DNA of 55,732 nucleotides, the filler included, from Sluysia triapertura (lineage: Eukaryota): NCBI GenBank assembly GCA_046118255.1. It is 4 parts of 4 records of this genome, joined end to end, with 100 filler letters (N's around TTAATTAATTAA, not from the genome) between each part and the next. Parts side by side here need not be neighbours in the genome. Positions count along the whole stretch, not along the records: positions 1 to 11,268 come from JBJNIA010186614.1; positions 11,369 to 23,501 come from JBJNIA010136062.1; positions 23,602 to 43,129 come from JBJNIA010060981.1; positions 43,230 to 55,732 come from JBJNIA010102988.1. One strand, 5' to 3'. Both the position numbers and the translations under genes were made by a program. The notes beneath the pieces are model-generated. The model did not search any database. It had not been told where the DNA came from and was given only the letters and a program-made list of their open reading frames with translations. The first letter of the stretch is position 1; every line of letters begins with the position of its first letter. Below, in pieces: positions 7,248-47,344 of the stretch.

Positions 7248-7314
7248 TGTTGAGAATAAATAAAAGAGTACAAGAAAGTTTATGTTGGAAATAATACAAA
7301 GAATTTATGCAGTT

Positions 7315-7385
<71 letters not shown>

Positions 7386-7790
7386 GTGTGGTTATTATCA
7401 TCGTCATTATTATTTCTTATTATTTTTAAATTTTAAATATGTTAAGAAATTAAAGATATAAGAGTACAAGAAAGATCGTGTTATAATTCAGATAAAATAA
7501 AAGAATTTATGTGTTTTAGGATAGTATTAATATTAATAACATTCCTGTTATTATAATTATCACCATTTTTAATTTTTATCATTTTTATTTCAAATTAATT
7601 TCATTGTCAAACTTATTAATTCAATAACTACCACTGAAAATTACATTTTCAATCATTGTCACCACTGATAGCGGTTTCTTTCTCAAGCAATTTGTATGAC
7701 GTTACTACTGGCTGTCCAACCAAAGTGAATCTCTGCATTATTTTATATATCTCTGGTTGGACAACCAATCAAAACAAACTTCAGAATAAA
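7248..7790 (+). promoter_or_regulatory. shared upstream module A (duplicated head motif, AAT tract, CCAAT/inverted-repeat block)
   Basis: AAGAAAGTTTATGT..AAAGAATTTATG occurs twice. TAACTACCACT, ACTGATAGCGGTT and GTTACTACTG are shared with 23936-24004. Inverted repeat 7713-7722/7754-7763, then CCAATCA. Confidence 0.55.
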
Positions 7791-7927
7791 ATGCTCATAA
7801 CACAAAAATTTATTTGAGAATTAATAATAAATTTATTGGTACCAAATTATTGGTTAACTAAAAAAGAAACTTTTATCAATATTTTAGTAATTTGAAAATT
7901 TATATCAGCTTTTGTATTGTGATAATT

Positions 7928-8350
7928 ATGGCTTCTAAGACATCAACGTTAAAATTCATTTTATTAGGTGATAATGGAGTTGGCGAAACATCAATTATGA
8001 ATCGTTACGTAAATAACAATTTTAATTATCAATATAAAGCCACCATTCGTGTTTATTTTTTTCTAAAACTATTGAACCTAATGATCGAGTTATAGTTCTC
8101 CAAATTTGGAACACAACAGGCCTAGATCGGTTTCACTCCCTTGGTGTTACATCTTATCTGAGTGCCAATGGTTGCATTCTAACTTACGTTGTTTCAAGTG
8201 AAGGTACATTTAACAATTTGGCACATTGGTACGTTGAGTTCACAAGCATTGTCAGAAAATAAAGTAAAGAAGTGTTGCAATGATCATAATGATGTGCATC
8301 ATTTTGAAGTTGGAGTTTGTGTTAAAGAAGCTTTTGAATACATTCTCATC
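7928..8350 (+). pseudogene. RAB7: Rab7-like GTPase, intronless, frameshifted and internally deleted
   Basis: MASKTSTLKFILLGDNGVGETSIMNRYVNNNFNYQYKATI, then after a frameshift in a T-run, KTIEPNDRVIVLQIWNTTGLDRFHSLGVTSYLSANGCILTY...WYVEF. This parallels Rab7 (GDSGVGKTSLMNQYVN..YKATIG; QIWDTAGQERFQSLGVAFY). P-loop K is replaced by E, DTAGQ is degenerate, and the NKxD region is missing. Confidence 0.85.
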
Positions 8351-8419
8351 ATTAAAATTAAAACGGGCATTATCTAAGTCAACCAAATAATTACATTTCA
8401 AATCATATATGATATTGCT

Positions 8420-9107
8420 TTCAGTAAATACTTGGCTCAAGTCAGATACGTTAAAGTTGGCCGACTTAGATTCAAATAATATTGTTGTCGATTTATTCGA
8501 AGTGCCTAATGTCAACGACTAATCAATGAAATATGTGGAACCTGTTATAACTAGTGTTGATGATGATGACGATTCTTCTCAAGATACACAAACACAATAT
8601 GCAGAACTAATTAACGTTAAGGCAGATATTTGAGATTATACCTCAAAATACTCAACATCAACATATGCAAATGAAAGTGAACAAAATATCAAAAATCTTA
8701 CTCGCAGTTTATATCATACTGAATTCAAAGACGACTTGCAATCAAAGAAACCCACAAATACTATGAACGTACCAAATTCTAATGAAGTTATCAAAAAGGC
8801 AATCTGCCAATTCGACTTTGATCAAGATGGAGTTTGTGTTAAGTATGGTATAAGTTGTATATACGCCCACAGGGCGAACCAACTAACAATTACCAATACT
8901 GAATTTCTACAATACCTCGATTATTTCTCCAGAATTGCAAACATCTTAAGAAGTCCCGGAGTATCAAATAAAAAGGGGATCAATAACAATTCATGTATTA
9001 ATGAACTCAAAGTAATTGATTCTTATACTGTTAAAAATGATATTATAATCTTTTATTTTTATTCAGATAGCGAAATGTGGAAATCCAACAATATAAAATT
9101 ATTTTAA
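8420..9107 (+). pseudogene. degenerate ORF ending in a CCCH-type zinc finger, continuing downstream of the Rab7-like segment
   Basis: A single reading frame runs from ~8420 to 9107 with two internal stops. It includes KKAICQFDFDQDGVCVKYGISCIYAH (C-x9-C-x6-C-x3-H, 8805-8870). Confidence 0.6.
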
Positions 9108-9559: not shown

Positions 9560-9639
9560 AACTAAATAAATACAAATCATATATTACATTTTTAATAAAT
9601 AAATAATTAAAATTGAAAAATAATAAAAATAACAAAAAT

Positions 9640-10560
9640 TAAATAAATAAATAATAATGTATATACTACTCAAAAGCGCTTAAAATAAATCATTCACCAT
9701 AATATTTCTGAAACAGAAAGAACTTTGCTTTTCTTAAATATTTCATAATCTTCCACTAATTTGACATTCTCTGGTAACTGGTTGTATTTTTTGAAACATA
9801 AACGGCACATAACCTAGATTGTTATCACTGCGGATTCTGTTTAGATTATTATTATGTCTCAATGAAATAAACATCTTGGTTTCAAATTTTCGTATTATTT
9901 CTGAAAGATATCCCGGACTTCTGTAATGTAAGCATTTGTAAATTAATGCCATGAATTTGAATTCAATTCGTGCTTTTATTGGCAACCAATGCAATTCCTT
10001 ATGATAAGGTGTTATACTATATTTACTTCCCAGTTGGAGAATTTGTCTTGTTGCTTGAATAATTATTAATTGTAATTTTTTCACTTCTATATGAAACTGA
10101 GTACAACAAACCATTATCAATGAATGATCAATAAGTTTAGCTGTTTCTCTATTACTAAATTTTCCAATATGTGATATTTTATTTAATTGATATTTATACT
10201 TTTAACAATACAATTAATATTTTCTTCCATGTTCATTTTTGAATCCACATAACAACCTATATTTCGTACTTTTTGCTTCTCATCTAGTATGTCTTACCAC
10301 CTACAATTAACATTTGTTTCATTTAGTTTGGTATTGTCGCTATTTTTCTTACTGAAGATTATAAATTCTGACTTTTCTTCATTGATTTTCAAGTATTCAT
10401 TTCCAAACCATTTTCTCAATTCATATACTAGTTCTTCTGTTCTTTAACAGCATTTTCTATATTGTTCATTTCAAATTCAGTACATATTTGTTCGTTATCA
10501 GCATATATATGGTATTTAAAACCACATGTTTCGATGAATTTTAACTTTAATTCTTTAATG
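9640..10560 (-). mobile_element. 5'-truncated, decayed L2/CR1-group LINE (RT C-terminal part)
   Basis: The minus strand encodes YHIYADN (YADD-like, ~10495-10515), LKINEEKSEF and ITPYHKELHWLPIKARIEFK...IYKCLH, the typical L2/CR1 ORF2 tail. Confidence 0.85.
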
Positions 10561-11387
10561 TGTAACATTCAACAAAATTTTGCAAAATAACTTCGAAACA
10601 ATTATTCGACATACTTTGCTAAATGCATCAACTTGTTGCAATTTGGGGAAATAGGTTGTTTCTTTAAAAAATTGATGGTCAATAAATTATTGCTACATGC
10701 ATAATATTGTTGGATCTTAGATCGACTTTTGATCATTTCGAAATTTGGGCATTACATTTGATGGCGTTACATTTGATTTTATATCCTATACTATTTGATT
10801 GTTTTATTATTATATTTTAAATATTTTATTGTGTATTTTATATTATTATTCGAATTCTATAAATATTATTTAAATATTATTATTATTATTATAAAATAAT
10901 CAAGAATTATTAAATAAATAATTATAAAATAAAATAGTAAAATTTTTAAAAAGAATTTAAATTTGTTTAAATAAATCAATATTAATAATGCACGCCAAAA
11001 TGGCGAAACTCACTATATAAATGGTAAAACTTGTATAATTAATATACAATTAATTCACAATTATTTAGTTAGCACTTTCACAGATACGCATATGTCTTAA
11101 AGAAGTAATTTTTTATTTATAAGTTTTTATTAAGGTTCTAATTTTAATAAAATAGAACCCCTTTAAAATCACACTTAAACTATACTTATTTTTCCTAGAT
11201 CGTAACTGGCTAGGTTAAATTTTAACCAAAATTTCGTATTTACAAGATTTCTAAGCCTTAAGCTTAAGNNNNNNNNNNNNNNNNNNNNNNNNNNNNNNNN
11301 NNNNNNNNNNNNTTAATTAATTAANNNNNNNNNNNNNNNNNNNNNNNNNNNNNNNNNNNNNNNNNNNNTTTCTCTTTCATTATTCTT

Positions 11388-11500
11388 ATTTCAACGAAGT
11401 TTATAATACTTCATCTGTTACTTCTCATCAATTCTTTCTTCATTTTTAATTCTATATATTCTTTACTCGTCTCTTAATCTAAAGTTGGGCAATCCCAACA
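11388..11500 (+). mobile_element. right end of TGTTGGGATT-family element
   Basis: Ends GGGCAATCCCAACA and is a diverged direct repeat of 11973-12105. The left part is lost in a gap. Confidence 0.65.
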
Positions 11501-12123: not shown

Positions 12124-12281
12124 TGTTGGGATAAAAAGGACTAAAGTGCCATTTGGTAAAATTGACTATAATAATCTAAAATTGTTAAACGAGGCTGATA
12201 GCTCAGTGGTAGAGCAATCGAACTGCGCATCTTGAGGTCCCGGGTTCGATCCCCAATCAATCCCTTTTATGAAGTCTAACA
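12124..12281 (+). mobile_element. 158-bp TGTT...AACA element containing a tRNA-derived cassette (copy 1)
   Basis: Starts TGTTGGGATA and ends GAAGTCTAACA, flanked by TTAT/TTAT. The internal region ~12192-12264 has an A box (TAGCTCAGTGGTAGAGC) and a B box (GGTTCGATCCC). Homologous to 44295-44443. Confidence 0.85.
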
Positions 12282-21750: not shown

Positions 21751-23601
21751 TTTATATTTATTAATGAATGTATGTAATATGCGTATTATCATTTATTATA
21801 ATTACTAATATTTTAATTTATGAATAATTTAATTAATTAAATAAAAATTAATTGTTCCTTTTTAATGTTTTTTTGTTCTTAATTTAAATACATTTTTATA
21901 TAAACCCTAGCACTAACTCGTTTTAATTTAATTTAGACTACTTGAAATAGAATAATTATTTTGTTTTCAAAAAATTATTAATTTAATTAGTTATATTCTT
22001 ATTTCTCAATTTTTCAATTGAATTATTCAATAAAACTAAGAAATTATGTTATTTAATTGAAGTTTTATATTGATATTTATAATTTAAATTTGATGATAAA
22101 AACAAATGAAAATAATTTTAAATTCAATTTTAAAAGCAACCAAATTTAATATTTTGTATTTATTTAATAAATGACAAGATAAATATATAAAAATTATTAC
22201 GAAAATATTTATTTCCTTGTCTTTGAAAACAAAACTTCTTTATGGTTTGATTCAGATAGTCTGAAGAAGTAATGTGTTGACAAAAAGTAGGTGTATTATC
22301 CTTCAGAATCTCGAATATATATTATTCATCTCAGTGACTTTTTGATTAGTTTGAAATGAATCGAACGGAGCTATACCTCTTTAGTTAACTATTGTAGTAT
22401 ATTTAAGATCTATGTTTTGGCCATACAAATAACTGTACAGCAGAAACGATTATGCAAATCATTGTTCTTATTTAATCCTCTAAAACAATATGTAACATGA
22501 CTGACAAACTTGCAGAAATACGAGTGGGACCAATTGGTTCCAGTGGCGGCGAAAGAGTTAAGAATATGTTAATAATTTTACTAATTTGCAATAGCTTTTA
22601 ATAAGTCTTCTTGATGTTAATTTTTACAAAATTCAAGTAAAATTTTGAAGCAAAATTTATTATCACTTATATATTATCAATTTGCAATCACAAAAAGCAA
22701 ATGTCAGACGAAAATATTTTGATTTAGTATAATTTTATCAATTTTTCAAAGAATATAAAATACTACTGTCTTCTTAATTTTTGTATGTGTACGTGGTGTG
22801 CCAAAAAAGTAAAAAGTACCTCATGGGAATACATTTGAAACAAACCTATTCACTTTTAAATTCGAAATATTAAAACTAAAAGATTTTTTTATTTATCTTC
22901 GAATGACGTTTAAACAGAAATTCAAATAATAAAGCAATTTTGCAGTTATTTCTTCAAACATAAGAACGAGTTTCTTGCAGTGAAACACACACCATATTTC
23001 AGGAATATCTGTTGTAATAATGTCCACAACTGTCACCTAAAAGGTGCTAAACAAATGATAACTTCCACATTACAAGCACAAATATATTTTAAACATTTAT
23101 TAATTTCAGAAAGATTCGTCGCTATAGTGAAGTCAATTTTTTAGGATTTTCTTTGGTTTTCGTACACGATAAAAAACAATTAATTAAATTAACTATAAAA
23201 ATAGATAAATTTATAGAATATTATTTTCTTGTCTTGTGTTTCAGTAGTTGTTCAGTGTTTAATTTTCTCAAAATATCAATTTTCATTTTATTTTTGTTAA
23301 TTTTAATTCAACATTTTACTTTAATTTCATTATTTAAATAAAATAGCAACTAAACTTTAATTGAGATTTCAAAAATAAATATTGTTACAAAATTTGTATA
23401 TTTTTTATTTATAAACAATATTATTACAATATACATTGTATCTGTAAATTAGACATGAAATTTCAGTAGAAATATATTTATTTTCTGTCAAATATTTTTA
23501 TNNNNNNNNNNNNNNNNNNNNNNNNNNNNNNNNNNNNNNNNNNNNTTAATTAATTAANNNNNNNNNNNNNNNNNNNNNNNNNNNNNNNNNNNNNNNNNNN
23601 N

Positions 23602-23675
23602 GCCCCGTCTAACAATTTCATTTTCAATATATTCAATTACACTACTTGGCACTTTTTAGGCCTTTTACCCCAACA
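23602..23675 (-). mobile_element. 5' half of tRNA-containing element (copy 3, truncated by assembly gap)
   Basis: The reverse complement reads TGTTGGGGTAAAAGGCCTAAAAAGTGCCA...AATTGTTAGACGGGGC, collinear with copies 1 and 2. Confidence 0.8.
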
Positions 23676-23748: not shown

Positions 23749-24190
23749 TGTAAATATATCGAGAATGAGAAAGTTAAGGATAAGGAAGTTCATGTCTTTA
23801 TAGTTTGAAAGATTTATGTTTTGAATAATAACAGTAATAATAGTAATAATAATAATATTATTGTTGTCATTGTTACCATTACCGTTTTCATTTCACATTA
23901 TTTTAAATAATGATTTTAAGTATTGATAAACTGAGTAACTACCACTACCAGTGGTTACATCATCGATTCACAGTTATAGTTTGATGTTACTACTGATAGC
24001 GGTTGTGTATTCATCACACAAAAATTCGTATACTAGTTAACCTGCCATCATTTCGACATGCACATTTAATCAATTAATGTTGCCTTACTAACTGCCGACT
24101 GATAACAGCTCCTTACATCTACCGTTCATTAGTGTTTGTACATGTTTTGGTGTCTGCCCAGTTTTGTATTTTGATTGGGCAGTCACTATA
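23749..24190 (+). promoter_or_regulatory. shared upstream module B
   Basis: AAGGAAGTTCATGT..AAAGATTTATG, AAT tract, three 10-13-mers identical to module A, and an inverted CTGCCCA/TGGGCAG overlapping a reverse CCAAT (TGATTGG). Confidence 0.55.
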
Positions 24191-24317: not shown

Positions 24318-25524
24318 ATGAAAAGTTACAATCGTGGTGATGTTTTAGAGTTAAGATCTCGTCATAAACTAAATTATGTCAATGAAAAGAATTAAAACAA
24401 ATTTAACGTGATTAAAAAGGAGTATGTAGATTTGGAAATTAAAATGATAGAATTTAATGTCCAAAACGAAATAACGTATAACGAAGAACATAAAGTAACG
24501 CGTTCTTTTTTTATCAAAGCTGATATCATCCAAACGTACAATCGTTCGACGAGTGTAATTCAAAATCAAACTAATTCGATCCTAAACGACATCAATTCTA
24601 ATGAAAGTCTAGAATGCAAAAACGTAAAAAATATTAGTTCATGAGAAATTTCAATTATATGTAGAGTCAAAGAAAAGAAACAAAAAATTGAAGAATGAAA
24701 ATAAGAAATTATCAGATGAATGTCTGAAATTCAAGCAAATTATCATATGTATGAGTAATAAAAGTGATGATATTAGATATGAAACTAATCAGTTACACCA
24801 ATATTATCTTCGCCAAATGGAAATACCTCAAAGTAAAACTATCAAGTACCGTCAGTCATTAGTAGAGACGTTAAGCCAATGTAGAACAAAAAATTCCAAA
24901 TATGTTAAAACCGAACAAAATAGAGTGTTGATAATCAAAATACAAAGTAAGTATATCGAATGTAAAAAAAGAATTAAGAATATGATCAAGGATATTATTA
25001 TGTCAATACAAGTGTTTCTTGAAAACCTTAAAGAAAGATGACGATTTACGAACGAGAAATCAAATAAATCATGGGTTCATACTGCAGCCGCCTATTATGA
25101 TTAAAGATTCCAAACGAAGTTTAATTAGTATGAAAATAAATTTACATGACACACATGATTGCTCAAATCAAGACATCATTAGTTACAAGAAGTCAAAATT
25201 GAATCTAGATTCAAAATTCAACAAAATCCTAACACCGTTTATCACCACAATGCAGTTTCTCTATTACAATCTATGATCAAATCTACGAATTTCTCCCGAT
25301 CAACTGAAAACGTAAACAGTCAAGAACGTGCAATTGGTAATATTACAATTAAGCTAAAAGTAATTTACTTTGTTAATGTATTTAGTGTAAACAGAGATAT
25401 GAACTTTCAATCTTATTCTATTATATTTTTTAGGACTTTTGTTACAATCAAACAGAAACATGCTCTCGGAAATATCAAAGGAATACAAATTGTGAATATA
25501 AAATATAAATATTTTTTGTCATAA
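24318..25524 (+). pseudogene. fragmented orphan coding region, K/E/N-rich and coiled-coil-like
   Basis: Four consecutive or overlapping same-strand ORFs (24408-24644, 24688-25041, 25019-25276, 25273-25524) follow an ATG at 24318 and are followed by AATAAA. No recognisable domain. Confidence 0.5.
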
Positions 25525-25709
25525 TAAAATTTTTTGGAATTTATCTTGTTTTAATTTAGAATATAAAGAAAGACCTAAGTTTCAAAAAATATTGTTTTTG
25601 CGATCGTCAACTATTTAATTTTGTCAAAGAATAATTTCATTGATGCACTAATTAATATTAAACTAAAATCTTTAATTAATTTTAATAATATTAATACACA
25701 ACAATTGTG

Positions 25710-28362
25710 ATTTTTAATACTTTTATTTTTTTAAAATTATCAATTTAAAACTCAATTAATAAATAAATTCAGAATTTCAATATATTCTCGAATAAATCAC
25801 AATTGTACAATGAAATTTTTTTATAATAATAACAATACAAATTATTCTTTCATAATAAATCGTCTTTGTATATAAACTTCAAAATTATAAATCTTTTGAT
25901 ATTAAAAAATCACAACCACGGGTGACACAACTTATCTAAGGTAAATGTTGACGCCCATATTAATACAAAATATAATCAATAACAAACACGTCACTAACTC
26001 TTGTTCCTATATTCCCAAAATGTTTATTTTAGCTGATTGCTAAAGAAAAGGATTCAATTTCACCATTATCCACAGATGAACTAAAGCAACGTCTCTACAG
26101 CTAGAAACTTTTTGTTTCCTTTTGTTGGGATTTATGTTAAAATGTCACAAAAATATTTTTAATAATAATAACAGAAATTCCCGTAAAATATTTATCACAA
26201 TAAATCCTTTTCTAATATTATAGATGAAATGATGAAATCAAAAAACAACCAACAATTTAATATATTTTAAACAATCTACAAAATAATCATTATGTGAAAT
26301 ATTACCAAAACAAATTAAATCTATAATAACCATAAATATCAATTTGTATATCTTAATCTTAATCTAGTTATAAGACAAAAATAAAATCTCTGAAAATGTC
26401 AATTTAAATCGCATAATACAAAGTTACTTCAAACGGGGATTCAACCAAAAAGGTATCACTTATCTAGATTAAAATCAACAGGAATCCCCTAAAATAACAA
26501 AATTGTTTAAAAAATCCCATAAATATGCTTTAACATATGCTTTAATATATTTTAACTAAATATAGAATTATTTAAAATAAAATGTGAAATGTTATGACAC
26601 AATTAATATTTATTTAAAATAAAAATTTATTTTAAGTAGATCAATAATAAAATTTAAAATACTATGGCAAAAGATTCTTGAATAAAATTAATATTTATTT
26701 TAAATAAAAAAATTTTAAAAAACATTACCAAAAACATAGATCTTTTTCGTGGCCTCTTGTGAATATGCCCTTTCTCCTTTTTTGTGAGTAAAATGCCTAA
26801 GTATTCTAAGTTATACCTTTTTTGTCAGCGAATGATTTCTACATTCGCAATTAGGAATTACTCTTACATTAAAATAACAATTATTAATATTATTGACATA
26901 CTTAAAAGTGATGAACTTAACTTTAGATTTTACAATTTAATTAATTTTCAATTCATCATCACACTCAGTTTTTTTAATGAAAAATTTTTAAGGTTCTCGT
27001 TCCCAAACAAACCATTTTACAAACATTCAACCTCATTTTCGGATTCTCCTATTTCATAGCAATCACTTTATATTCAATTCATTATCTTTTCATCATTCGA
27101 AATATGAAAATTTCAGCATTTTTTAATTAAAAATTAATTAAGATTCGACTTTGCTCAATATAGAAGTTTTCCTCGCATAAACTCATTGAAACCTTATCTT
27201 CATCGGAAGGTCTTTTTAAAATACATGCATACACAATTACAGATTTAACATAGCATTCCTCATTCAAAAGTTATTCACATCAACGTAATTTTTCTTAATT
27301 AAGTTAATATTTTAATTAATTATTTATTTATTTTAACTTATTTTATTCTAAGTTTAAAGCTTGTATTATAGTTATAAAGTTGTTAAATGCTATATAAAGA
27401 ACTCAAGAGACTCTAGATTCTTTCACTTCACCACTCTGATTCCTTTTTCTACTTTTTTATTTCAATTATTAATGTATTAAATTTATCATTAATATTATTA
27501 ACCATGATTTTAATTCTTGAACATTTGAAAGGCACCAAACATTTCACAAAGTCACTCGAAGGTTTCAAAAGTTTATTAAAGTCTCAAACGCCCTCAAAGA
27601 TTCCAAAAAATCAAAAGTCTCAAATGATCCTAAGATTCAGAAATTCAAAGGTATCTTCATACTTCAAGACATCTTTCCAACCCTTACTTAAGTCTTCACA
27701 AGTGTCTCTATACCCTACAAAGGTCTTTGGAACTTCAAGGTATTCTTTGGTTTCAAAATGATTATAAATATTTTACTGTTCATTACTTTTGCTCTGGAAA
27801 TATTTAATTATGTTTATATTATAATGTTTCATATACTTTATATCACATTTTCTTATGTATATTTTAAATTCTCTTACCATTTAATCTATTTTCTATACAT
27901 TAACTAGTCAATCCCAACACTTTTATTGGTATAAAGCTCTGACTCTGTTTCTAAACTTTCGAAAAAATGCGACTGCTTATATAGCAGCTTTATGATGATT
28001 TAAGAAATGGAAAAATTAAAAATTGATCCAGACGGAAATTAAAACCCTCTATTCTTTATTAGTCGGTGATAAGCCGACAAATTTTAGTGATTAAATATCG
28101 ACAGCAATTTCCGTCTATGTCCAATTTCATCATCTCTTTAATTATCTAAAGATAATTGATTTGTAGTATACAATCGCCTTATCTTTTCAATTTCATTAAA
28201 TTAAAATTTAATATCGTTATTATAAACTATTGCATTAATAAAGCAATTTGTTAAATTTAATTTAATTAACTCTAATTAATTTATTTTCTATAGGGATTTT
28301 TGTATAATATGTTGTGCGTCAACTGTATGTCGCACGTCAAGTTCAATAACGTATTTGAATTA
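25710..28362 (+). repeat. second copy of the ~800-bp repeat, split by the 26123-27919 insertion
   Basis: The left half 25710-26122 and right half 27920-28362 align in order to 49280-50075. Confidence 0.85.
26123..27919. mobile_element. 1.8-kb non-autonomous element with 10-bp TIRs and 4-bp TSD (Ginger-like or LTR-like termini)
   Basis: TGTTGGGATT (26123) and AATCCCAACA (27919) form a perfect inverted pair, with CTTT on both flanks. It interrupts a repeat whose uninterrupted copy is at ~49280-50075. Confidence 0.85.
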
Positions 28363-28667
28363 GTATCTTTATAAACGTTTATTAATTATAATTACAAACA
28401 TTTGATTTAGTTGGCTACCTAATTATTTTAGCTGTCATTTTCGGAGAGCATTTTTAATTATTTCGTTAAGTACTGTCATTGGTTGACAGTTTACATTATT
28501 GTGCTGTTGCCTTTACCACTATTTTTGCTTTGTAGTATTATCATATATTCAAGCTACCAAATCATATTAGGATTTCATTTAATTTATCGGCCAACTATTA
28601 AAAATTAAATTACAATTACGAATTGACTAATTCACAGTTGACTATTTACGTAATATTTATTATTAAT

Positions 28668-29400
28668 ATGCACAACGTGATTAACAAACTTCTATACTCC
28701 AAATGTCTTACAAGAAATACAAAGATCAACATAGTTTTTACGATAATAATGATAATGACAATTATGATTAAAAATATTATTATAACGATGATGATAATCA
28801 TCAATTTCATTCGTATTCAGGATATAGTACACTAGATAATTTATCAAACAATAGAAGATTTAGAAATATTAAATGTAGTTTTACAGAATTACACTCGACT
28901 ATTCGAATTTTGAAAGTTAATGAACCACTACCTTCAATTATCTTACAAAATGATGTCAAAAATATAGATGAGTTAAGCGAAACAAATGAACTCGTTTAAT
29001 GAAACAAGAGTCACAATGTTCGTTAAACCGGCACATTTCGTTACCAACAATTAACTCTGATATTTGTAAAACAAAGATTTTTTCAGTTGTCTATAGTCTC
29101 AATAAAAATCACGATTTCGTTCTAAACACATCATAAGCTAATCATTCAATTTTTAATGCAACGCGATCATCTAATAATTCAATCAGACCAATTAGACCTT
29201 ATAATGTTACAAGTATTGATAACGCAAAGTCAAACATAAAACAAGACTATGACAGACCACGTTTCTTCGAATCAGCCTTATGTCCATATGGATTTTTAAT
29301 GGCAGGGTAATGCATTCATAATGGAACAGTCTGTCCATATGCGCATGGATTATACTAATTTGTCTCAATTTCTGAAGTGTATACAATTACTTTCCTTCAG
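28668..29400 (+). pseudogene. degenerate orphan ORF with CCCH zinc finger
   Basis: 29281-29346 encodes CPYGFLMAG*CIHNGTVCPYAH, with the same C-x9-C-x6-C-x3-H spacing as 8805-8870. The upstream sequence is coding-like but broken by stops and frameshifts. Confidence 0.55.
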
Positions 29401-30013
29401 TCACAGTTTAAAAAAATGAATTTGATCTAAAGTCTCAACATTACTGTTACAACAAAAACTTTTATAAAGTATAATTTTATTCTACAAACCGTTTACTATT
29501 TCTTGTTCAAAATAATTATGATTTTATTTAGAAAGATTAATTATTATTCCATCGTAGCATATTCGTGTCTGAATGAAAATCCTTGGCCATTAACTTTTCT
29601 CTTTAATAAAGAAATTCTTAATATTATAATTGTCATTAACATTAATAAACAATTTACATGTTATTGTTGTTTTATTTCGAATAAATCAATTATTTTAATA
29701 ATAATAATTAAAGTTTTAAAAATAAAATTATTCACAATACCTCATATAAATGGTATAAGGGTTTAATACTCCCAAAATAATAAATTCCTGTCATATATGC
29801 AATAAAATTTTAAAATTATGCTATGAAATATAATAATTTTGCTCATTATTTTGTAATTTTATAAATCGTTTATTTAAACCTGCTTAAATTTTATTTTCGC
29901 CTAGTTTTTGAATATTTTCCTTGGCAAAGTTGTTATTTATTCTCTTTTTAAACAAAGGTACAGTTGTTTTAATAAATAGATAACTATACAGCTGTTTTTG
30001 GTTCTTTATAGAA

Positions 30014-35300: not shown

Positions 35301-38300
35301 CTAATAAATACAAGCAAGTAGAAGTAATGTAAAAACAACAAATATTACTTGAAATAATAATAATAACAAAAATGTATAATTTAAAATATCTTAATAATTT
35401 CATTAGTTTCAAAAGTTCTGAAGCCAAGAAATGCATTTAATTTAAGAAGTAAACAAAAACAGTATGTAAGAAACGTGGAGTGGAACTTGCCAACTTAATG
35501 AAGAAATAATCATGCATATTAATCAGAAGCACCACAGGAACGAAAAATCATGATTTAATAATAATAATAAACGAATGCAAATAGCATGTAATCACTAAAA
35601 GAATACGTTGTATTATGGGGTTTAAAATGAAAGGTTAATATAGAACGTGATTTTTTTATTTCTGGCACTTCATAAGATTCACAAAAAATGAAGATAAAAC
35701 TGACATCATTATTGATCATTTAAATAAAGCTAGTATTTTTCATTAGTGACGTACTCTTGACAGCTATGTAAAATAATTTCTAATAATATGATGGATAGAA
35801 TAACAAACCCAGCATTGATGTAAAACAGTAGAAGGCCCATGTTACAGAAAAATTTAGTTTCATGTTTGTAGAATTGAATTCGATTTAATATTTCGAATTT
35901 TAATATATATTCAAGTTTAATTTTAATGATGCTTTTTGATTACTTTTGTGTTTACATTTTTCAGTTCGATCATTGCGTATTTTAAAGTATTGGGTAGGTT
36001 AGGCAATTGCCTAAGGATAGTAAATTATTGGATGTGCTGTGTTTACATGAAGTGTTCAGGTTGAGTGTTTTGCTTTTTATGAAGGATATTTTTGAAGTGA
36101 GAATTTAACATTTATCTGTTATTGTTGATGGTTGTAAAGTCTGGAATATTTTATTGCTAATATTTGAATAGTGGTGTTTTGTATAAATTAGTATTAGTTT
36201 TATGAATATTTTGTTCTATTTTGGTTTTGTATGCTATTTTTAGTTTGGTCATGCCCTATGCAGCATTCTTATAGGTTTTAGTATTTTGAGTTATATCATT
36301 ATATTTCAGAGCTTTATTATGGTATTTGTTAATTTTTTGTAATGCAAAGAAGAATGTGTTATACAAAAGTTATTGAGGAATTTATTATTTGGTTTTAGAA
36401 TCATTATTGTGCTAAGGGATAGAGTTGGTGTTTATGTTACTATAATGTGTATCTTACTTTAGTTACAAGAGTTAATTTTTTTATATATAGCATTCTTTTG
36501 CTTGTTGCAATGAATGTTAGAATTTAGTACTTGTAAAACTCATTGTTTTATGTTTATTGCTAGTTTTTACCTTTGTCCTTTTGAATAATGTTATAAAAAG
36601 GAGACAATAAACAAATTATATTGGCCAAAGATGAAATTAGTCATATTAGCACAATACATGCATAAAAATCATTTATATTATGTTAACTATATAGAGAAAT
36701 GGCCATATAAAAGAAATTAAGTAAAAATTATTATAGAATGAAATGGAAGAATTAATTGGCCATAAAACTTTAAATCTATAATTTTCAGAATCGGTAAAAT
36801 TTTATGAATTCATAAAATTTTGGATTAGTGGTAAATTAACTGGTGAACACTGATTTTGACTATATCTAAATTTCTAAGTGAAATATCTAAATTTAAAATT
36901 AAATAAAACTAAATCTTTCAAGAAATTAAAATTACGTGAGATGCTTTACTTTTTGTTCTACTTTTTAACATAAACTAAACGTCAAGAAAGTCATCCATTA
37001 TAAGTTATTATATATCATTATGTGGAATTATTGTTTTCCATATACTATACAATGTACAATGCTATACTATAGTCTAATTTCAATACTACACCGTTAAAAT
37101 AAACTTCAACTTATTTTAACTACAAAAATTGCTCTTTTATTTATAACATTAAAGATTAACCTACACAATTACCCATTTTATTATTACATAAGATATAATA
37201 GAAGCAATAAATAAAATAGATTGAAATTTATTTATTTTTTAAATTCCATAAAATTATTAATGTTAAAATAAATTATAATACTTTTGTAATTCAGAATACA
37301 AAGTTGAAAAATAAACGCAAAAGAGCTGGTCATGAAATTTTGTACGACATTAATGATGAAGATACATTGGGAGAATCAACTATAATTCCACCTGGGTTAG
37401 CAAATTTAAATATAATATGATCAAGTATATTTTGTATTTCTAAAAATTACAGAAGTACATTTTCTGCTTTCGGTAACAGAAAAAATAAACTTTCATACTA
37501 CCTTTTTCTTTGTAATTTATTTTGACTATCTGTTTCATTTTGAATTTCATTATTATTCTCAATCATTGGCAATAAAGTGCTTCTTTGTCGATCTAACACC
37601 TTTAGTTGATACATAGATTGTATTTGCAAGACTTAATTGTTTCGTGATTGATTAATGTTTGTCTAAATCAAGAAAAATTTACCACCAATATTTAAGAATA
37701 AAATAATTCACTTATGAGTAATATTGTCTACCGATAGTGTTTTAGTTAGTCAATGTGCTTATTTTATTTTAATTCTGTAACGGACCTAATTTTTGAACAT
37801 TGTGTATCAAAAAGGATTACACTTTTTGTTTGCGTAATTGCAAATATAAGCTTTCAGTCAATCTAAAATCAACATTCTCTTTTGAATATATATTTCAAAT
37901 TTTATGAAATTAGAATTAAAATAATGAATAAAAATAAGCGAGGCTGAATTTATTTTTAACTAAAACCGAAATCAAACATATTGAAAAACCGACGTTATAA
38001 AAGATATATTAAAAGGAATAAATGTTAATAATAGAATTAAAAGGAATTACTTGATTGAGAAGTTGTACAAGTTGCTAACAGACTTTACTTTAACGACTAC
38101 ATGATTCGATAAACAGAAGTAGTAAAACGTAGATTGATCGGATAATGTTCTTTGTCCACGTTCGTGATAGGCTTCTATCACGACATCTGTTTTAAAAATT
38201 TGTTTATGGACGTATATATTGTTCATGAATCGAAACTTGTTATAGATCTCGTTAACCTTATGTATATCGAAATCAATCTTGCTAATTTGAATAACTTTTT

Positions 38301-41300
38301 GAAAAATTACTTTTTCACTTGAAACTAATATCTCTTAAACAGCTAGCTTTAATAATATGAACTTTAATTCTACTTGATTTAATCATTTCATAGGATAGCT
38401 TTGACTTATTGACGTAAGTTAGACTTCCTAATTTTGGTAGACTTGATGAATTTTTCATTAAACTTCATATTAAACATTAGCTATAATTTTGGTGCTTGCA
38501 AAACTTATTCAAAATATTGTGGTATACTACTAATTTTAGTAGAATTATATATTCTAAATTGAATAGGCCACATCCTACGTTGCCGTTCTTTATTTTTTAA
38601 TTTTTGTTTTTGTTACGAAAACTTGGTAATGATCAAGTATTTAAATCAAAAAAACACAAAACGAAACACTTAGACTCGCCTTCGTATACTGATGCAACTT
38701 TTCCTCTACATCTCTTAGTCTGCTTTCTGCACAAAAGAATAACTTTTGACTTTGATGGCTTTGTTGGTTTAGGAACTTGTCTTTCTTTAATTCTTGAAAT
38801 AAAAGGTGTTGGTGAGTCGAACAGATTACAAGTAACTTGTGTTTTAATGAACTAACGACTATAACTTGTCGTCATTTTGATTTGCTTGTGTTTTTGGTAA
38901 TTTCTGAACTAAGTTTATTTGATTTTTCTAAGTAATCTGGTAAATAGATAAACATTTGTTTCTTTTTCTTTGTCATCACATGGCTTTCTATTGACGTATT
39001 AAACATTTTAAAACTTCGTTCTCAGACAAATGTTTGTTTTATAGACACTTCAGAATTAAATTTTTAGAGTAACAATACTGGATCATAATTATAACATAAT
39101 ACAAAACTTTTAATAATTTTAAAGTTGCATTTTGTACAGATTTAACTTTATCCTTTAAACCTGATTTAATCAAGTGAAGCCTCTTTGATATCGTTGAAAT
39201 GTTTTAATATTTTCCTTTTTGCTAAATGGAATCATTCAAGTTTTAAATGATAAATTGTTTAAAAAAACAATATCAGCTAGACACGTTAGAATATAATTAT
39301 GACTATATAATGTTACAGAGTAAAATGCATCGTGCAGAAGAGAATTAGAAAAAGATAATAGCGAACATGTGGTTAGAAGATATAGATAGGAGGTTAAACA
39401 AAAATGCAAATGATTTGAAACCCGACCAGATACATAATGCCGACGAGGCAGGCTTGTGCTGGAAGTGTTTGCTTACAAAGACACTTTTTCGTCTAATGAA
39501 TCATCGAACCCAGGCCATAAATCATCTAAAGAACGTATCACAATCACGTACTGTAGCAATTCATCCGGAACTCATAAAAAGAAACCTATCGTGATTGGAA
39601 AAGCAACAAAGCCAAGATCATTTAAAGGAACAGAAATAAAGAATCGTCCTGTTTACTACAACAATCAAAAAAGGAGCATGGTGGACAGAAGATGCTTTTT
39701 TAAAAGTAAAGGATTTCCACAGAAGGCAGTACCGTTATTAGATAATGCTCCTTGTCATCCAAATGAAAGCACACTAAAAACAGACGATGGCCTTATAGCT
39801 GAAAAATTTTTAAGATATAATGTAACATCTTTAATTCAACATACGGATCATTGAGTTATCTCTTTATCGCAATGATCTTCTTAGAAGCTTCTGCAGCGAG
39901 CATAACGATTTAATGAATTTATGGAAGAAATGACAATGTTTGCAATATATGGAGCTAAATCTAGGAACAAAATTAAGTCCGTAAAACTAGTTCTATCGTG
40001 GTTGAAAATTTTGTCAAATGTAGAAAGTAATGGTTCGAACTGAGATACGTAACATTTCAAATTTAAATGGCTTTGAAAGTGTTGATGATCAAAATATTGA
40101 GAAGTGGATGGAATTTGATTCATCTGAACCAGGATTCGAGATACAGAGTGACACTGATATTATTTCAAATCCAAATGAAAATAAAAGTGAGGTCGAAGAT
40201 ATTACCAATCGACACGGCACTGACTTCTGTCGATACTTTACTAGAATACGTCGATCGATGGAGCTTCGACTATGATTCGAGATGATATTAAAAATCATTG
40301 AGAAATTCACTTAACCCATTCGCTGCCAAGCCCAAATTATATGAAATCATCCCCATTGGCATTTATATTTATAATTTGCTTATTCAAAAGCCTGCATGTT
40401 ATAATACATTTAAAGTAGGACGAGTATACTCGTCTTGGCAATGCGTGATACCCATTTTTAATAAAGCATTGAATGTATTTTCATGGATTTTGTATTATAT
40501 TAGTATTTTTTAAAATTATTTTTGTATTATTATTTTGTGGATTATCCGTGCCGACCCTCACCATTATTAGCACGAATAATCGAGAGTTTACTGTATAAGT
40601 TGTGAAGTTTCTTTACAAAATTATCTAAAATGTATTAAAAATAATAAGTTACTGTTAAAACGAAAAGATTATTTACCAAATTAATATTAATCGATTTCAT
40701 TATAATTGAAATTAGTTTCTTATAACTTGTGACTCTGCATTTGCAAAAAAACCAATTTTTTCAACAAAATACAAATAATAATAATAATGCTGAATTAGAA
40801 ATTTTTGTGTGCAAGTAAAATTCAGATTAACTGTATAATTGAATAAAATTTAGTATCGGTGTAAATATTCTGTCAATGTACATGAGGACAGAATAGAAAT
40901 TTAACCACATATAATTTAATTTAGTTTAGAAATTCAGTATTACAATAAAATAAATAACGTTGTCTATAAAATTTACTATAAATAGAGATTGTTTTAATGT
41001 CTAAGAACAGAAGTGAACATTATTTAATCTTGATTATTTGGTGAACATTATTTGATTTTAAATATTCGGCTTATAAGGGTAATAGTGAGTAAAATTCGTT
41101 TATTAAAATATGTATTGCACTTGTAAAATTATAGGCAGCTATAATTTTAAAATAAATATTAAAATAAACTAAACTGTTAAATTTTTAAGAAAAAGAAATA
41201 GTTCCTAAGAAATCTTTTTACTATTTTAGTTTTTCTTTCATTTATTTTAGTTATTCGGGATTGAGAAATAAAATTTGAGGTTACGAACAATTATCTGTAT

Positions 41301-42434: not shown

Positions 42435-42487
42435 CATCAAACTGCGCAGCAAGAGTTCCCGGTCAGTCCATTTAACGAAGTCTAACA
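42435..42487 (+). mobile_element. 3' fragment of tRNA-containing element (copy 4)
   Basis: CATCAAACTGCGCAGCAAGAGTTCCCGGTCAGTCCATTTAACGAAGTCTAACA matches the 3' part of copies 1 and 2. Confidence 0.75.
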
Positions 42488-42596: not shown

Positions 42597-43129
42597 CCGT
42601 AATTTCCGGCGTATAAGGCGCAACCTTTTACATAGAAATTTTGAAAAACTGGTACATGCGCCTTATACGAGGATTTTGCAAAGAATAAAATATTTACAGA
42701 TTTTATTACATTTTTATTTATTATAACGTTTAATTCACAACTGAATAAATATTTTAATAAGATTTTGATTGTTTAAATAATAGAAATTTTTAAATTTTTA
42801 AGCGTTATTATGAATTCTTCCAAAAGACATTTATACACTGTAGATTTCGAGCTCAAAGTAGTTGAATACTCAAAAAAGCACGGGAATCGCGCAGCAGGTC
42901 GAAAATGAATCAATGGTTAGAAAATGGAGGTCTCAGGAATATTTACTGAGTCAATCTAAAAAAACCAGAGAAAGTTTTCGTTGTGGAAGTCTTAAGTGGT
43001 CTTTATTAGAGAAAGAAATGGAGAAGTGGGTTATTGGGCAACGAGCAAGTGATAGGGCAGTTTCAACCTTGGACATACAACACAGGGCTAAAGTGTTGGC
43101 AACCGAAATGAACATTTCTAGCTTTAGTG
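42597..43129 (+). mobile_element. pogo-family transposon 5' part (Brinker-like DBD + CENP-B HTH), truncated by gap
   Basis: TA then TIR CCGTAATTTCCGGCGTATAAGGCG. Coding MNSSKRHLYTVDFELKVVEYSKKHGNRAAG, frameshift, then ESMVRKWR...WSLLEKEMEKWVIGQR...AVST. Confidence 0.85.
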
Positions 43130-44294
43130 NNNNNNNNNNNNNNNNNNNNNNNNNNNNNNNNNNNNNNNNNNNNTTAATTAATTAANNNNNNNNNNNNNNN
43201 NNNNNNNNNNNNNNNNNNNNNNNNNNNNNAGTTTAAAATGAGATTTTTCTTTGCTATCTATAAAGGATAGCCAGCTAATTAAAATATAATTTACGTTGAT
43301 TTTAGATAAGCAATTTCTAAAAATTGCGTTAAACTTATAACTCAAAACTAACGATAAAAGATTGCAAAAATGGTAAAATTGTTTCCTCGAAAATTGAGAC
43401 GTCGAATAATTGGTTGTGATAGAGAATCGAAGAATTAATCTTGGTAGACAATATTACGAGCTTGGCAACTAGTTAGAAACTTCAGAAAGTCGAAAAACTT
43501 GACAAAAATTTTTAAAATCGAGAAAATTGTGTAGTGCAAGTTGATGTGAGCTTTATTTATACTTATTTGATATGTCCTTGAAATTAAAACAAGAAAATTT
43601 TATAAAATATTTTTAAATCCAATAATTTATCTTAAATTTAATATTTATTTTAATAATATAAAGAATTTTTAAATAATTTTAACAATTTTAATAATATTAT
43701 ACTTAATAATTTTAACAATTTTAATAATAATAATATAATATTAATAATAATATACCAACCTGGAAAACGATGATAATTAAATTTTTTCGAAAAATTCCTT
43801 AAATTATAATTCCGATTAATGTTTAGAAACTTAAATCTTTAAATTATAAATGCTTTAAATTATAAATGAAAATATTTGATTATTTAATTGAATAAAATGT
43901 TTATTTATAACTAAATGACTATGTCTAATACTTTGATTTACTTGATTTAATTTATGTGATTTACTAACTGACTAATAAACTTGAAAATATTTGATTAATA
44001 CTTTGAACTTTACACTTAATACACTTACCATGTCAAAATCATTATACTCACATTTTAAAAATTTCAAAACAACAGTAAATAAAAAAGAATTTCTGTTAAC
44101 ACTTTTAACTTCCTTATTCCTCTCTCGCAACTCTCTTTCATATTTTTGTACTGATCATTATTCACGTATTTTATCAATATTACCCAATCAAATCCATAAA
44201 ATGGATATGTTAGAATTTTTGTCATTTGATATCTCAAAACAAATTTTTATATCAAAAAATTGTGTAACTTAATGCAAATTCCAAGTTGTAGATA

Positions 44295-44443
44295 TGTTGG
44301 GATATAGGCCTAAGGTGCCATTTGGTATAATTGAATATAGTAATCTAGAGGTTGTTAGACGGGGCTGATAACTCAGAGCATCGAACTAAGCAGCGAAGGT
44401 TCCGGGTTCGATCCCAGGTCAGTCCATTTTACGAAGTCTATCA
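44295..44443 (+). mobile_element. 149-bp tRNA-containing TGTT...CA element (copy 2)
   Basis: TGTTGGGATA...GAAGTCTATCA with a clean 4-bp TSD GATA (44291-44294 / 44444-44447). Acceptor-like stem GGGCTGA/TCAGTCC, B box intact, D arm partly deleted. Confidence 0.85.
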
Positions 44444-44996
44444 GATAGAATCACTTTATGCTGTCAAAACCTAAGGTATGATGCAAGACACAAACAATAT
44501 GATATAGATGTTTCATTGCTTCTTTTTATCAATATTCTCAGTTACATAAAACAAAATATAGAAGATATATTTTGCAAAGTTGGATGTTCCGAAACTACAT
44601 TTGCTTGCTTTTCCCTAACAACTACAAACCAATTACTCCAGCCGGATTTTGTCTTGGAAATAACAAACGCGCAATAATTCCTTAAGAATGTAGCTTTATT
44701 AATTCAAAAAGTCGAATATACGATTCTAAAAAATAAAATCACTATCAAGATTCTTTTTTGAACATACCGCCAAATCAACTAGAATATTATAATAAGAAAA
44801 ATTTTATTATACTTTCAATGATAAATGAAATAGCACATATTCGATATCGTAGTTTGAAGCGTTTCATTAATATTCCCTGAGAATTGGATCACACCAAATT
44901 GTGTTTACCATGAAACAATTTAATATTGTTCCATATATCATCATTTCAGATGTGTAACTAAAGTAAATTAAGACTAGATAAAATTTCATTTTAATA

Positions 44997-45960
44997 TGTA
45001 CCAAAAACCGGAGGAAGATTTTAAAGAAAAAGAAATGTTCGTAAACAGAGAATTTTATGTTTATTATTATTATTATTAATTTTATTATTATTATTATTTA
45101 TTATTATTACTATCATTATTATAAATTGTATCACTAACTATTATCATCAACATTTTAAGTATTCTTGGTAACTATTTAACTGTCATTCTTGACAGATTTT
45201 CATTACTAAAAAGTCTAAGTGCGACAGTTTAGAATCAGCTTAAATTGATTTTTCATAGTAACAGTACATGTGCCTGTAGAGCTACATAATGTATTAACAA
45301 TCACGTAGTAATTGGTCAGCCATTGAAAATGTTTAGAAAGTGCTTCACTCATTATTGACCAATCATAATTGTTGTTAAAGAAATCATCAACGAACTATAA
45401 GCATCAGTGATCACCAACACTTGCTACATCTTATTACCATATTGTGTTCTTACTTCATTCTTATCGATTTTATGTAAGATAATAAAGTAAATAAAGAGAA
45501 GTTCATGTACAAGAATTACAAGGTTTATGCAATTTTCTTTCTTTTAATAATAATAATAATAATAACGTTACCACTGTTATTGTTATTATTATTATTGTTA
45601 TCAGTAAATATTATTATTATTTTTATCATCATCATCATTAATGTTGTTATTCTTCGTATTATTACTAATGTTATTATTATTATTATCATTATTATTATTA
45701 TCATTAGATTTGCCGCCATCCTTCCAGATACCTAAAGAAATAAATTAAAAATAAACAAAATTAAAAATTGTTGATAACACTGGTTGCTACCACCACCAAT
45801 GCTGACAGCCCATTTCATGTTAACATTGAGCTGTCAGCCTTGATGGTGGTTAGCCATCAGTTTTGTCTAATTCATCTGTAGATTTTTCGTTTAGTAAGAC
45901 CCAATCAGAGCATAACTAACTAAATTACTAAATGCAAATATCGGTGCTCTGATTGGGCAA
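44997..45960 (+). promoter_or_regulatory. two tandem shared upstream modules D1 (44997-) and D2 (45473-)
   Basis: Head motif AGAGAAGTTCATGT..AAGGTTTATG, ATT tracts, TGACAG/CTGTCA pairs, and a 13-bp inverted CCAAT repeat 45900-45912/45945-45957. Confidence 0.55.
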
Positions 45961-46030
45961 ACAAAAATAAACCATATTGTACTAAAAATAATAATAGTAC
46001 AAATCACAATTTAATTCAATAATAGTAAAT

Positions 46031-47344
46031 TTGGAGTTATCACCTATTGAACAATCAATACTCATGCTAAAAAATTATGATATCAAGATGTTTAATGATA
46101 TAAAGCAGTCACGGTTCCTAAAATTAGTTTCATCAGATCTTCAAAGAGTTTTTATTGATACTTTTAGTGAGCATACCATGGATATTGGAAAAAGTGTGTT
46201 TCTAGTCGCACATTTATTAGAAATTCCTTGCATCAATGATTTATCAAAAGATCTAATTCAATTGTGTATTAATGATATTAGTGAAGATTCATCATTATCA
46301 AATTGTCATATGAAGCATATATCTCGAGTTACAACTCCTGTTTTAAATAAAGATCATACTATTAATGTTTACTACCAAGTTGACAAAATTGTTTATTTGC
46401 ATGCAAATCAAAACAACGTTTTCAACCAAGGTTACAACGTTCCAGAATGTATGTCTGTAATACAAGAATTATCTTATAAAGACAATAAATTAAACGATTT
46501 CAAAATAAATCTCTTCCATCCATCTACAAATTTTTTAGTGATGTTACTGAATGTGTTCACGCAATTACAAGATAATTCAAACAGTTTCACAAATTATATA
46601 AAGGCTACCAAGATTCCGAATCATAATGTAAGAGAATATACATTCTCTACTATCAAAGTAAACTCGCACGAGATAATTAGTAATCTAATCTTTCAAGTAT
46701 ACGTTGAATGTGCAAACGGCATCAAATTATTAGTTAATGCTCGAAATAAAATGTTAAAACGAGTCATCTATGTGCTTCCTGCTTTATGTTCAACTAAGGA
46801 AGATTTTAAAAAGTTTGTAGATAATTTTAAATTTTTATTAATACACTTGAATAAAAATGTTAATAAGATATCTATTTTAGATTTATTTAATGAATATTTT
46901 GTAGGCATCGCTGACACAAATTGGACCCATGCACACCTGAAGGCCAAGTCAAAGATTAGTTACAATGTTTCCATTTCAAGCAAATCCGTATTAAAAACAA
47001 TAAAATTTTACGTGTTTCATTTAATAAATATTTTCATATATGTTTATTTAAATAATTATAAATTAAAACGAAAGAACGACTTTGTAAATAATGTAATTTA
47101 TAATTTTGATAATATTAAGATCAGTAAAATCGTAGATGATCATGACGTTGTTAATTTTTATGATCCAGTTGCAAATAAAATATTAAAGTTATCTACATTC
47201 AAGGTTCTATGTCAAATGCGTTGTATGATAATTACAAAATTAACAATTAAAAGATCAAAAACATATAAAACTGTTCCTTCAAATATATATATTTTTCTTT
47301 CATACTATTATTATACAATTGTTTCTTTAATAAATTTAAGATAA
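46031..47344 (+). CDS. orphan protein, uninterrupted 437-codon ORF (first ATG 46064)
   Basis: By far the longest ORF in this very AT-rich window, and not low-complexity over most of its length. It is preceded by a CCAAT inverted-repeat block. No family recognised. Confidence 0.7.
   Translation: MELSPIEQSILMLKNYDIKMFNDIKQSRFLKLVSSDLQRVFIDTFSEHTMDIGKSVFLVAHLLEIPCINDLSKDLIQLCINDISEDSSLSNCHMKHISRVTTPVLNKDHTINVYYQVDKIVYLHANQNNVFNQGYNVPECMSVIQELSYKDNKLNDFKINLFHPSTNFLVMLLNVFTQLQDNSNSFTNYIKATKIPNHNVREYTFSTIKVNSHEIISNLIFQVYVECANGIKLLVNARNKMLKRVIYVLPALCSTKEDFKKFVDNFKFLLIHLNKNVNKISILDLFNEYFVGIADTNWTHAHLKAKSKISYNVSISSKSVLKTIKFYVFHLINIFIYVYLNNYKLKRKNDFVNNVIYNFDNIKISKIVDDHDVVNFYDPVANKILKLSTFKVLCQMRCMIITKLTIKRSKTYKTVPSNIYIFLSYYYYTIVSLINLR

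Follow-up and report, generated by a model that had tools for sequence, protein, structure and literature searches.

Does a promoter-like sequence that recurs in front of intron-free open reading frames (ORFs) belong to those genes, or to a mobile element that carries them? The question is raised by a 55,732 nt stretch of DNA from Sluysia triapertura (GenBank assembly GCA_046118255.1), hereafter the window, which consists of parts of four records joined end to end. An original prediction had pointed to a series of modules, here called A to E, composed of a head starting with TGT, an AAT/ATT-rich sequence and a GC-richer block with CCAAT boxes, followed by cargo ORFs. The module is real, and its conserved core is a pair of hairpins (hairpins 1 and 2), not the TGT head. 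We tentatively read it as a non-autonomous Helitron-like element whose 3′ end has been bypassed, so that intron-free cargo travels with it behind a predicted CCAAT promoter, a reading whose chances we put somewhat short of even. The counts reported rest on the 55.7 kb window and on the contigs of one DNA run over positions 44250–48500. Feature coordinates are collected in Table 1.

The hairpin pair and block homology

Judged from alignments, modules A, B and E are homologous, and modules C and D are looser relatives of these three. The order of parts common to A, B and E is a purine-rich head, an AAT/ATT tract, hairpin 1, hairpin 2 and a start codon, which lies 131–215 bases past the start of hairpin 2. 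Colinear alignment of the blocks gave z 4.1 for A and B and z 6.0 for B and E, the latter score being reached in 0 of 150 shuffles, and merely z 1.7 for A and E. The blocks of C and D gave no clear alignment with those of A, B and E; the top scores were z 3.2 for B and C on the minus strand and z 2.3–3.1 for C and D. C and D have a TGACAG palindrome in common, and D has a 12-base word in common with B, directly before hairpin 1. The words reported earlier as common to A and B (at 7625/23936, 7664/23992 and 7701/23986) and the CTGTCA-N-TGACAG palindromes at 28473 and 45180, for which the chance expectation is 0.01, were all recovered.

When hairpin 1 was searched with leave-one-out profiles, the held-out copy ranked first in all three cases, and hairpin 2 of A, B and E folded with z −4.7 to −6.6 on the better strand. 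Both arms of hairpin 1 differ between B and E. Eight of the 21 inner pairs differ between these two copies: four are changed on both sides and are still Watson–Crick pairs, one has gone from a mismatch to a pair, two have a change on one side that gives a better pair, and one is broken. Hairpin 1 has been kept by compensatory changes; from two sequences, selection on the structure is inseparable from arm-to-arm repair. The CCAAT boxes that had been placed in inverted repeats within the GC-richer blocks were present in all five blocks, and what that description missed was the hairpin pair as the core. Six of the 12 window matches of one CCAAT pattern fell within 3.1% of the sequence, a pattern chosen afterwards and scored on module copies that are not independent.

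An Rfam search with E up to 1 returned two sub-threshold microRNA matches only (MIR172 with 27 bits, against a threshold of 70). Matches to the hairpin-1 pattern elsewhere, at two metagenome and 120 viral loci, were rejected as chance-like. The two metagenome loci have a GC content of 46–53%, where the window has about 25%, and lack the 3′ arm; the best of the viral loci reached E 0.056 with profiles.

Directly 5′ of module C lies one of two copies of a non-coding repeat of about 800 bp (25705–26110 plus 27965–28362, and 49275–50076), which are 68–71% alike and have an internal inverted repeat. This copy may have replaced the head of module C.

The heads

The five heads are real, and the likeness claimed among them is weak: in a leave-one-out profile test of the five, the held-out head ranked first in two cases (E 0.1 and 1.1). 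The AAGRAAGTTCRTGT-like motif is enriched over shuffled sequence: it matched seven times where 2.5 matches were expected (0 of 100 shuffles), and it is present in four of the five heads, although the pattern was derived from the same heads that it scores. The second motif proposed for the heads, AAGRATTTATG, showed no enrichment, its 12 matches being close to the 10.6 expected. Nor did TGT hold up as a common start, as in module B the aligned position reads TAT and the TGT at 23749 does not line up with those of the other heads. As an element terminus it also failed. About 60 bases upstream of the TGT of module E are likewise repeated; a depth of about 800 extends over 45443, upstream of the TGT, and one contig, with a deletion, runs through 45480, so the TGT is internal in module E. 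Tandem heads occur twice, at 7248/7440 and in D/E.

Two other candidates were discarded. Palindromes around the heads folded no better than shuffles, and the heads as coding sequence gave reading frames that disagree among the copies. Strong strand skew of G and C was seen at 6600–7240 (−0.34), which ends just before the first head of A, and also at 27000–27900 (−0.32) and 36000–36613 (+0.31), in 1 kb windows.

Repetition of the module with its cargo

Module E and its ORF are repeated as a unit. Outside hairpin 1 and the skipped repeat (ATT tracts were left out of the depth computation), the depth of the E unit was about 190–2,700, against a single-copy baseline of 14.6 and 17.7 taken from contigs without differences. 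Depth over the E ORF was 666–1,672, about 40–90 times single-copy, and the two bins containing hairpin 1 (45670–45953) had mean depths of 26,780 and 32,702, about 1,500–1,850 times single-copy; summed contig depth is not copy number, and these contrasts measure repetition. Flanking the hairpin-1 peak, depth was 474 at 45737 and 1,283–1,681 at 45877–45884, and on the right side of the E unit it dropped between about 47800 and 47860. The longest other copies of the E ORF are 83–90% alike, and several skip 44–178 bases inside the ORF. The earlier proposal of a mobile, cargo-carrying module is thus supported as regards a unit of module and ORF with deletion derivatives and a far more repeated hairpin 1, and falls as regards its TGT ends.

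Module D and about 500 bases before its head were slightly repeated (depth 24–164), and the segment 44534–44959 was repeated at a low level (130–165). An exact 12 bp direct repeat was seen at 47336–47347, at the stop of the E ORF, and at 47806–47817, near the right end of the E unit.

Ends and a Helitron-type signal

No convincing terminal inverted repeat (TIR), target site duplication (TSD) or long terminal repeat (LTR) pair was found, in agreement with the original prediction, which had seen no matching right ends with TSDs; a rolling-circle element therefore fits better than an integrase. For none of the five heads was there a credible TGT...ACA partner with a TSD, and a second module copy was found behind none of the four cargos. 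The end zones of the E unit held no exact direct repeat of 5–12 bp, and between 45370–45480 and 47720–47860, zones whose ends are approximate, there was no subterminal inverted repeat of 11 bp with one mismatch or fewer. A 17 bp imperfect direct repeat at the two ends (45411/47818) is a weak lead, the pattern having been built from both sites. TT stands directly before hairpin 1 in A, B and E, in AT-rich sequence. The Rfam search gave no hammerhead ribozyme, and the core pattern of that ribozyme occurred at chance level.

When both strands of the window were scanned under strict criteria for hairpins with CTRR and T behind them, there was a single hit, at 45870, which is the right edge of the hairpin-1 depth peak. 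In this hit, within module E, a 19 nt palindrome (45841–45859) lies 11 nt before the terminus, CTAA followed by T. According to the accessible text describing Helraiser, the palindrome of that element is likewise 11 nt before its 3′ end (PMC4778049). When the T was not required, two of the three hits in the window fell in modules (D and E), and relaxed criteria added B. A palindrome shortly before a 3′ CTRR, which at a length of 16–20 nt is characteristic of Helitrons of the Helitron-like element 1 (HLE1) group, was thus found in E under strict criteria, in D with no T after it, and in B under relaxed criteria.

Cargos

All four cargos lie in sense, with starts 80–190 bases after a CCAAT box, and three of the four are broken. 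The Rab7-like piece of cargo A1 was confirmed, as was the CCCH finger of cargo A by Pfam search. A1 begins at its own ATG, and we call it processed because it is intron-free; the parent Rab7 gene was not seen. The cargos had been described as unrelated, which is not true of all, because A and C both carry a C-x9-C-x6-C-x3-H finger. The score of the A2–C finger alignment was reached in 0 of 2000 shuffles and is driven by the cysteines in common. Cargo A2 had no match among longer proteins or viral contigs, and its finger has weak look-alikes in large DNA virus proteins (score ≤0.83), which are a lead only.

The 437-codon ORF of cargo E, predicted to be intact, is a long open frame that starts with TTG, has its first ATG at 46064 and is overlapped at its end by a second frame. 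That second frame is likely part of the same ancestral gene, and other copies of the E unit have an indel inside the overlap, so this copy may be broken at its end. No homolog of cargo E was found in a word-indexed protein search, among 1.84 billion representatives, in Pfam or in viral contigs; its atlas scores were ≤0.79 and a single-sequence structure model had a mean predicted local distance difference test (pLDDT) of 33.

A weak common motif lies behind cargos C and E (29718–29780 and 47501–47590; z 3.5 on 25 shuffles) and is possibly a common 3′ segment. Before head D, at 43985–44990, there are decayed plus-strand frames, interrupted by the tRNA-like element at 44295–44443, that could be another cargo.

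Table 1. Positions of module parts and cargos in the window
Feature	Position	Strand	Remarks
Module A, first head	7242..7312	+	Purine-rich; AAT run follows up to 7381; local tandem duplicate of the second head, E 1.6e-9
Module A, second head	7434..7517	+	
Module A, hairpin 1	7605..7676	+	Degenerate, shortened; folds no better than shuffles
Module A, hairpin 2	7707..7771	+	10 bp perfect arms 7713–7722/7754–7763; CCAAT box 7765; z −6.6 on minus strand
Cargo A1, Rab7-like piece	7928..8374	+	Frame changes, stops; no intron over Rab7 residues 5–106
Cargo A2, open frame	8634..9107	+	C-x9-C-x6-C-x3-H zinc finger; zf-CCCH_UNK E 3.5e-7, just under cut-off
Module B, head	23751..23822	+	
Module B, hairpin 1	23923..24006	+	Fold z −3.4
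Module B, candidate Helitron-type 3′ end	24003..24036	+	Short palindrome and CTAG, then T; relaxed criteria only
Module B, hairpin 2	24148..24186	+	Reverse CCAAT box; z −4.7
Cargo B, decayed frame	24318..25276	+	No Pfam family; stop after 25 codons, frame changes
Module C, palindrome CTGTCA..TGACAG	28472..28490	+	Encloses reverse CCAAT box; no CTRR behind; head absent
Cargo C, decayed frame	28668..29350	+	CCCH finger 29281–29346, spacing as in cargo A2; internal stop
Module D, head	44991..45062	+	Weakest of the five
Module D, candidate Helitron-type 3′ end	45180..45209	+	16 nt palindrome and CTAA, then A
Module D, inverted repeat	45310..45365	+	With CCAAT boxes
Repeated E unit, module and ORF	45410..47835	+	Both ends approximate
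Module E, head	45465..45535	+	
Module E, hairpin 1	45771..45870	+	Most stable of 2169 100 nt windows, z −7.6; very highly repeated
Module E, hairpin 2	45900..45957	+	13 bp perfect arms, one CCAAT box per arm
Cargo E, 437-codon ORF	46031..47344	+	Repeated; no detectable homolog
Second frame over end of cargo E	47269..47610	+	

A candidate mechanism and its alternatives

As a Helitron-like element, the element proper would run from the head through hairpin 1 and the CTRR. A Rep-helicase made elsewhere would nick at the 5′ end and would usually stop at the hairpin and CTRR, with occasional read-through. Hairpin 2 and its CCAAT boxes would stem from an early read-through event. Processed or orphan ORFs would then have come to lie behind this hairpin, at the spacing of 131–215 bases from its start, and would be copied along at the DNA level, where most decay. 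With a bypassed 3′ end, it would make sense that TSDs are missing, that the right ends are unrelated, that heads stand in tandem and that hairpin 1 outnumbers any one cargo. About 500–600 bases upstream of the ORF are kept in each copy, which makes an mRNA route unlikely, as these bases would probably be lost on it. Helraiser offers a parallel, as its left end is reported to be essential and its right end dispensable, loss of the hairpin leading to capture of flanking DNA (PMC4778049, in the accessible text).

Several observations weigh against this reading. It leaves unexplained why hairpin 1 has a long foldback stem, a feature without counterpart in the HLE1 descriptions in the accessible portions of the sources, and random read-through does not predict that all four cargos lie in sense near a CCAAT box; the sense orientation and the stem together call for selection or an RNA step. 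Modules A and C lack a CTRR, and the CTAA of D precedes an A. A CTRR followed 30 of 206 hairpins window-wide and three of seven in the modules under relaxed criteria, and 3 of 34 and two of four under strict ones; against the background rate of 9–15% the enrichment in the modules is modest, and it was noticed afterwards. No common 5′ TC end was found upstream of the heads, the several A-TC sites at 45384–45430 before head E including none common to A, B and D, and none of the 135 open frames covered, out of 136 in the list, contained a Rep or helicase domain. The depth contrast provides no count and comes from one DNA run, possibly the source of the window itself.

The depth peak is equally explained by a free-standing element of about 100 bp, and from this comes the main rival. 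Here hairpin 1 would be a long-armed miniature inverted-repeat transposable element (MITE), or else an HLE2/HINE element would have contributed it as its palindromic 5′ end; either way it would lie inside a unit of head and CCAAT promoter that another DNA route spread together with genes. A uniform peak over about 45771–45865 fits both depth bins, in A, B and E hairpin 1 follows a TT, and HINE subterminal repeats can be palindromic with insertion at TT (PMC4067079, accessible portion). However, all three copies of hairpin 1 in the window lie between a head and hairpin 2 and none is free, no TSD was seen around hairpin 1, and the end zones of the E unit lack the 11 bp subterminal repeat sought with up to one mismatch. 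We consider this rival unlikely.

Rather more doubtful is a genome-wide gene-launching cassette outside any described transposition family, present as thousands of foldback-hairpin copies with a CCAAT promoter; processed host genes and new orphan ORFs would be put in sense behind it, and some of them, the E ORF included, would be amplified as the element's own. In a search of mostly open-access literature, no match was found for a foldback core in which paired CCAAT boxes go with an amplified ORF lacking relatives.

Doubt deepens further for the proposal that the module is the ordinary promoter of a class of fast-turnover, intron-free host genes, spread by tandem and segmental duplication, with the hairpins as paired sites for CCAAT and TGACAG factors. 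The original prediction had offered such a control region as its second reading, and it would suit the CCAAT boxes in all five blocks, the sense orientation of the cargos and their starts 80–190 bases after a CCAAT box, and the E ORF, which stayed open in just 4–13% of simulations at 4–6% neutral change. NF-Y and TALE factors are also reported to co-occupy elements in zebrafish (10.1101/720102 and PMC6023610, accessible portions). The broken state of three of the four cargos makes it weaker than the mobile reading, and so does the very high repetition of hairpin 1, whose abundance is at least about 20 times that of the E ORF. Stems of 20–30 bp with compensatory changes moreover exceed what factor sites need, and TGACAG has not been retained in hairpin 1 of A or B.

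Very unlikely, in our judgement, are units moved by an integrase (Ginger- or LTR-type, with TGT...ACA ends and 4 bp TSDs) whose right ends have eroded and whose cargo was acquired by RNA template switching. Three clear TG...CA elements with 4 bp TSDs do occur in the window, the Rab7 piece begins with its own start codon and shows no intron, and LTR-mediated retrocopies can be chimeric (PMC5131818, accessible portion). Against this, the TGT is misaligned in B and lies within the repeated sequence in E, the heads have no significant alignment to TGTTGGG ends, and no second module lies behind any cargo. Just one TIR–TSD pair involves a head (7248/17142); it comes from a set of 103 pairs, mostly at chance level, and would enclose most of THOC1.

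Least probable of all is that the modules serve as intergenic signals within a single large element with many ORFs (Terminon-like or DNA-virus-like), repeated before each co-oriented ORF: every module is on one strand, the 500 or so bases upstream of head D are also repeated at a low level and the finger of cargo A2 has its weak viral look-alikes, but the modules are separated by THOC1, SLBP and numerous unrelated transposons, and no hammerhead ribozyme, viral relative or hallmark viral or retroelement domain was found near them.

Comparison with known systems

The criteria for HLE2, Ginger/Pack-TIR, LTR and Terminon elements were taken from the accessible portions of PMC4067079, PMC11417382, PMC2836005, PMC6431247, PMC8277862, PMC5131818 and PMC6544945, and the likenesses and differences given here are limited to those portions and to the accessible text of the other papers cited. 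By analogy, the module would work like a promoter- and gene-capturing Helitron. Bat Helitrons amplified captured promoters and retrogenes (PMC4224331), and HelibatN3 and HelibatN211/N424 (PMC4778049, PMC4224331) resemble the modules in their palindrome and CTRR, lack of TSD and TIR, and high copy number, and in carrying a promoter-like segment and intron-free pieces of host genes, mostly decayed. Unlike in the bat elements, the putative 3′ end here is the distal arm of a 30 bp foldback hairpin, upstream of the promoter-like segment and cargo, and one amplified cargo is a long ORF without a known homolog. Membership among the HLE1 Helitrons would call for a defined 5′ end, a target site and a Rep-helicase partner, and we place the module beside them, not inside.

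DINE-1/HINE elements, which are non-autonomous Helentrons of HLE2 (PMC4067079, PMC11417382), are alike in having a conserved core by a microsatellite tract, palindromes, a TT such as stands before hairpin 1, and very high copy number, whereas no subterminal inverted repeats of 12–15 bp were found at the two ends of the E unit and its cargo is gene-sized. Pack-TIRs and Ginger elements (PMC8277862, PMC2836005) also mobilise pieces of host genes, and the window holds TG...CA elements with 4 bp TSDs, but the modules have neither TIRs nor TSDs. LTR-mediated retrocopies (PMC5131818) likewise have intron-free chimeric cargo behind a promoter-like repeat; the modules differ from them in lacking a second flanking LTR, and inspection by eye revealed neither a primer-binding site nor a polypurine tract. 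Terminons (PMC6431247) also combine captured host genes with co-oriented ORFs whose function is unknown, while the modules have no hammerhead ribozyme or linked reverse transcriptase.

Gene and promoter capture by transposons is already known. A search of mostly open-access literature gave no relevant match for a Helitron with a CCAAT promoter and intronless orphan genes.

Other repeats and host genes in the window

An element of 150–160 bp with TG...CA ends and a tRNA-like interior is present at 12124–12281 (+) and 44295–44443 (+), with partial copies at 23602–23675 (−) and 42441–42487 (+). Both full copies have 4 bp TSDs. At its left edge at 44295 there were 166 loose-ended contigs, and in one bin the depth was above 380,000. 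The element resembles a sequence that derives from a tRNA and was mobilised by an enzyme of integrase type, not an ordinary short interspersed nuclear element. ARAGORN called no tRNA, and a search of mostly open-access literature for tRNA-derived elements with Ginger-type ends gave general papers only. A 1,797 bp element (26123–27919) with 10 bp perfect TIRs (TGT...ACA) and a 4 bp TSD, inserted in another repeat, reads as Ginger-like or as a solo LTR; ends related to it were seen at 12105 (−), 11500 (−) and 20254 (+). No integrase was found in the window.

Three similar remnants with an ATT tail and no Pfam match lie at 9603–10780 (−), 48148–48626 (+) and 53109–53405 (−), and look like the 3′ ends of long interspersed nuclear elements. 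Depth was very high over 48084–48500. Remnants of mariner-type and pogo/Tigger-type transposases (HTH_48, DDE_1, HTH_Tnp_Tc5) were found at 776–1100, 4129–4388, 39349–40270 and 42610–43128, and a 12 bp tandem repeat of about five copies at 6340–6395. The 12-base central spacer common to the 100-letter gaps (11269–11368, 23502–23601 and 43130–43229) is an artefact.

The identities of the two host genes reported from the window, THOC1 and SLBP, were borne out by Pfam domain search, and a profile scan upstream of both gave no module, as had been claimed. Both have short introns of about 33–45 bases. The best named matches of a THOC1 exon were annelid and mollusc proteins (51–57% identity), with two unnamed proteins higher (66–69%).

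Implications

Hairpin 1 provides a precise handle for collecting every copy of the module in the assembly. The repeated E ORF, which has no detected relative, may be a lineage-specific gene that was captured, or may represent a new type of element gene. If the Helitron-like reading is correct, a transposon in this animal would equip intron-free and orphan ORFs with a ready-made promoter at many sites, and this would be a concrete route of new-gene birth beyond the bat and plant Helitron examples.

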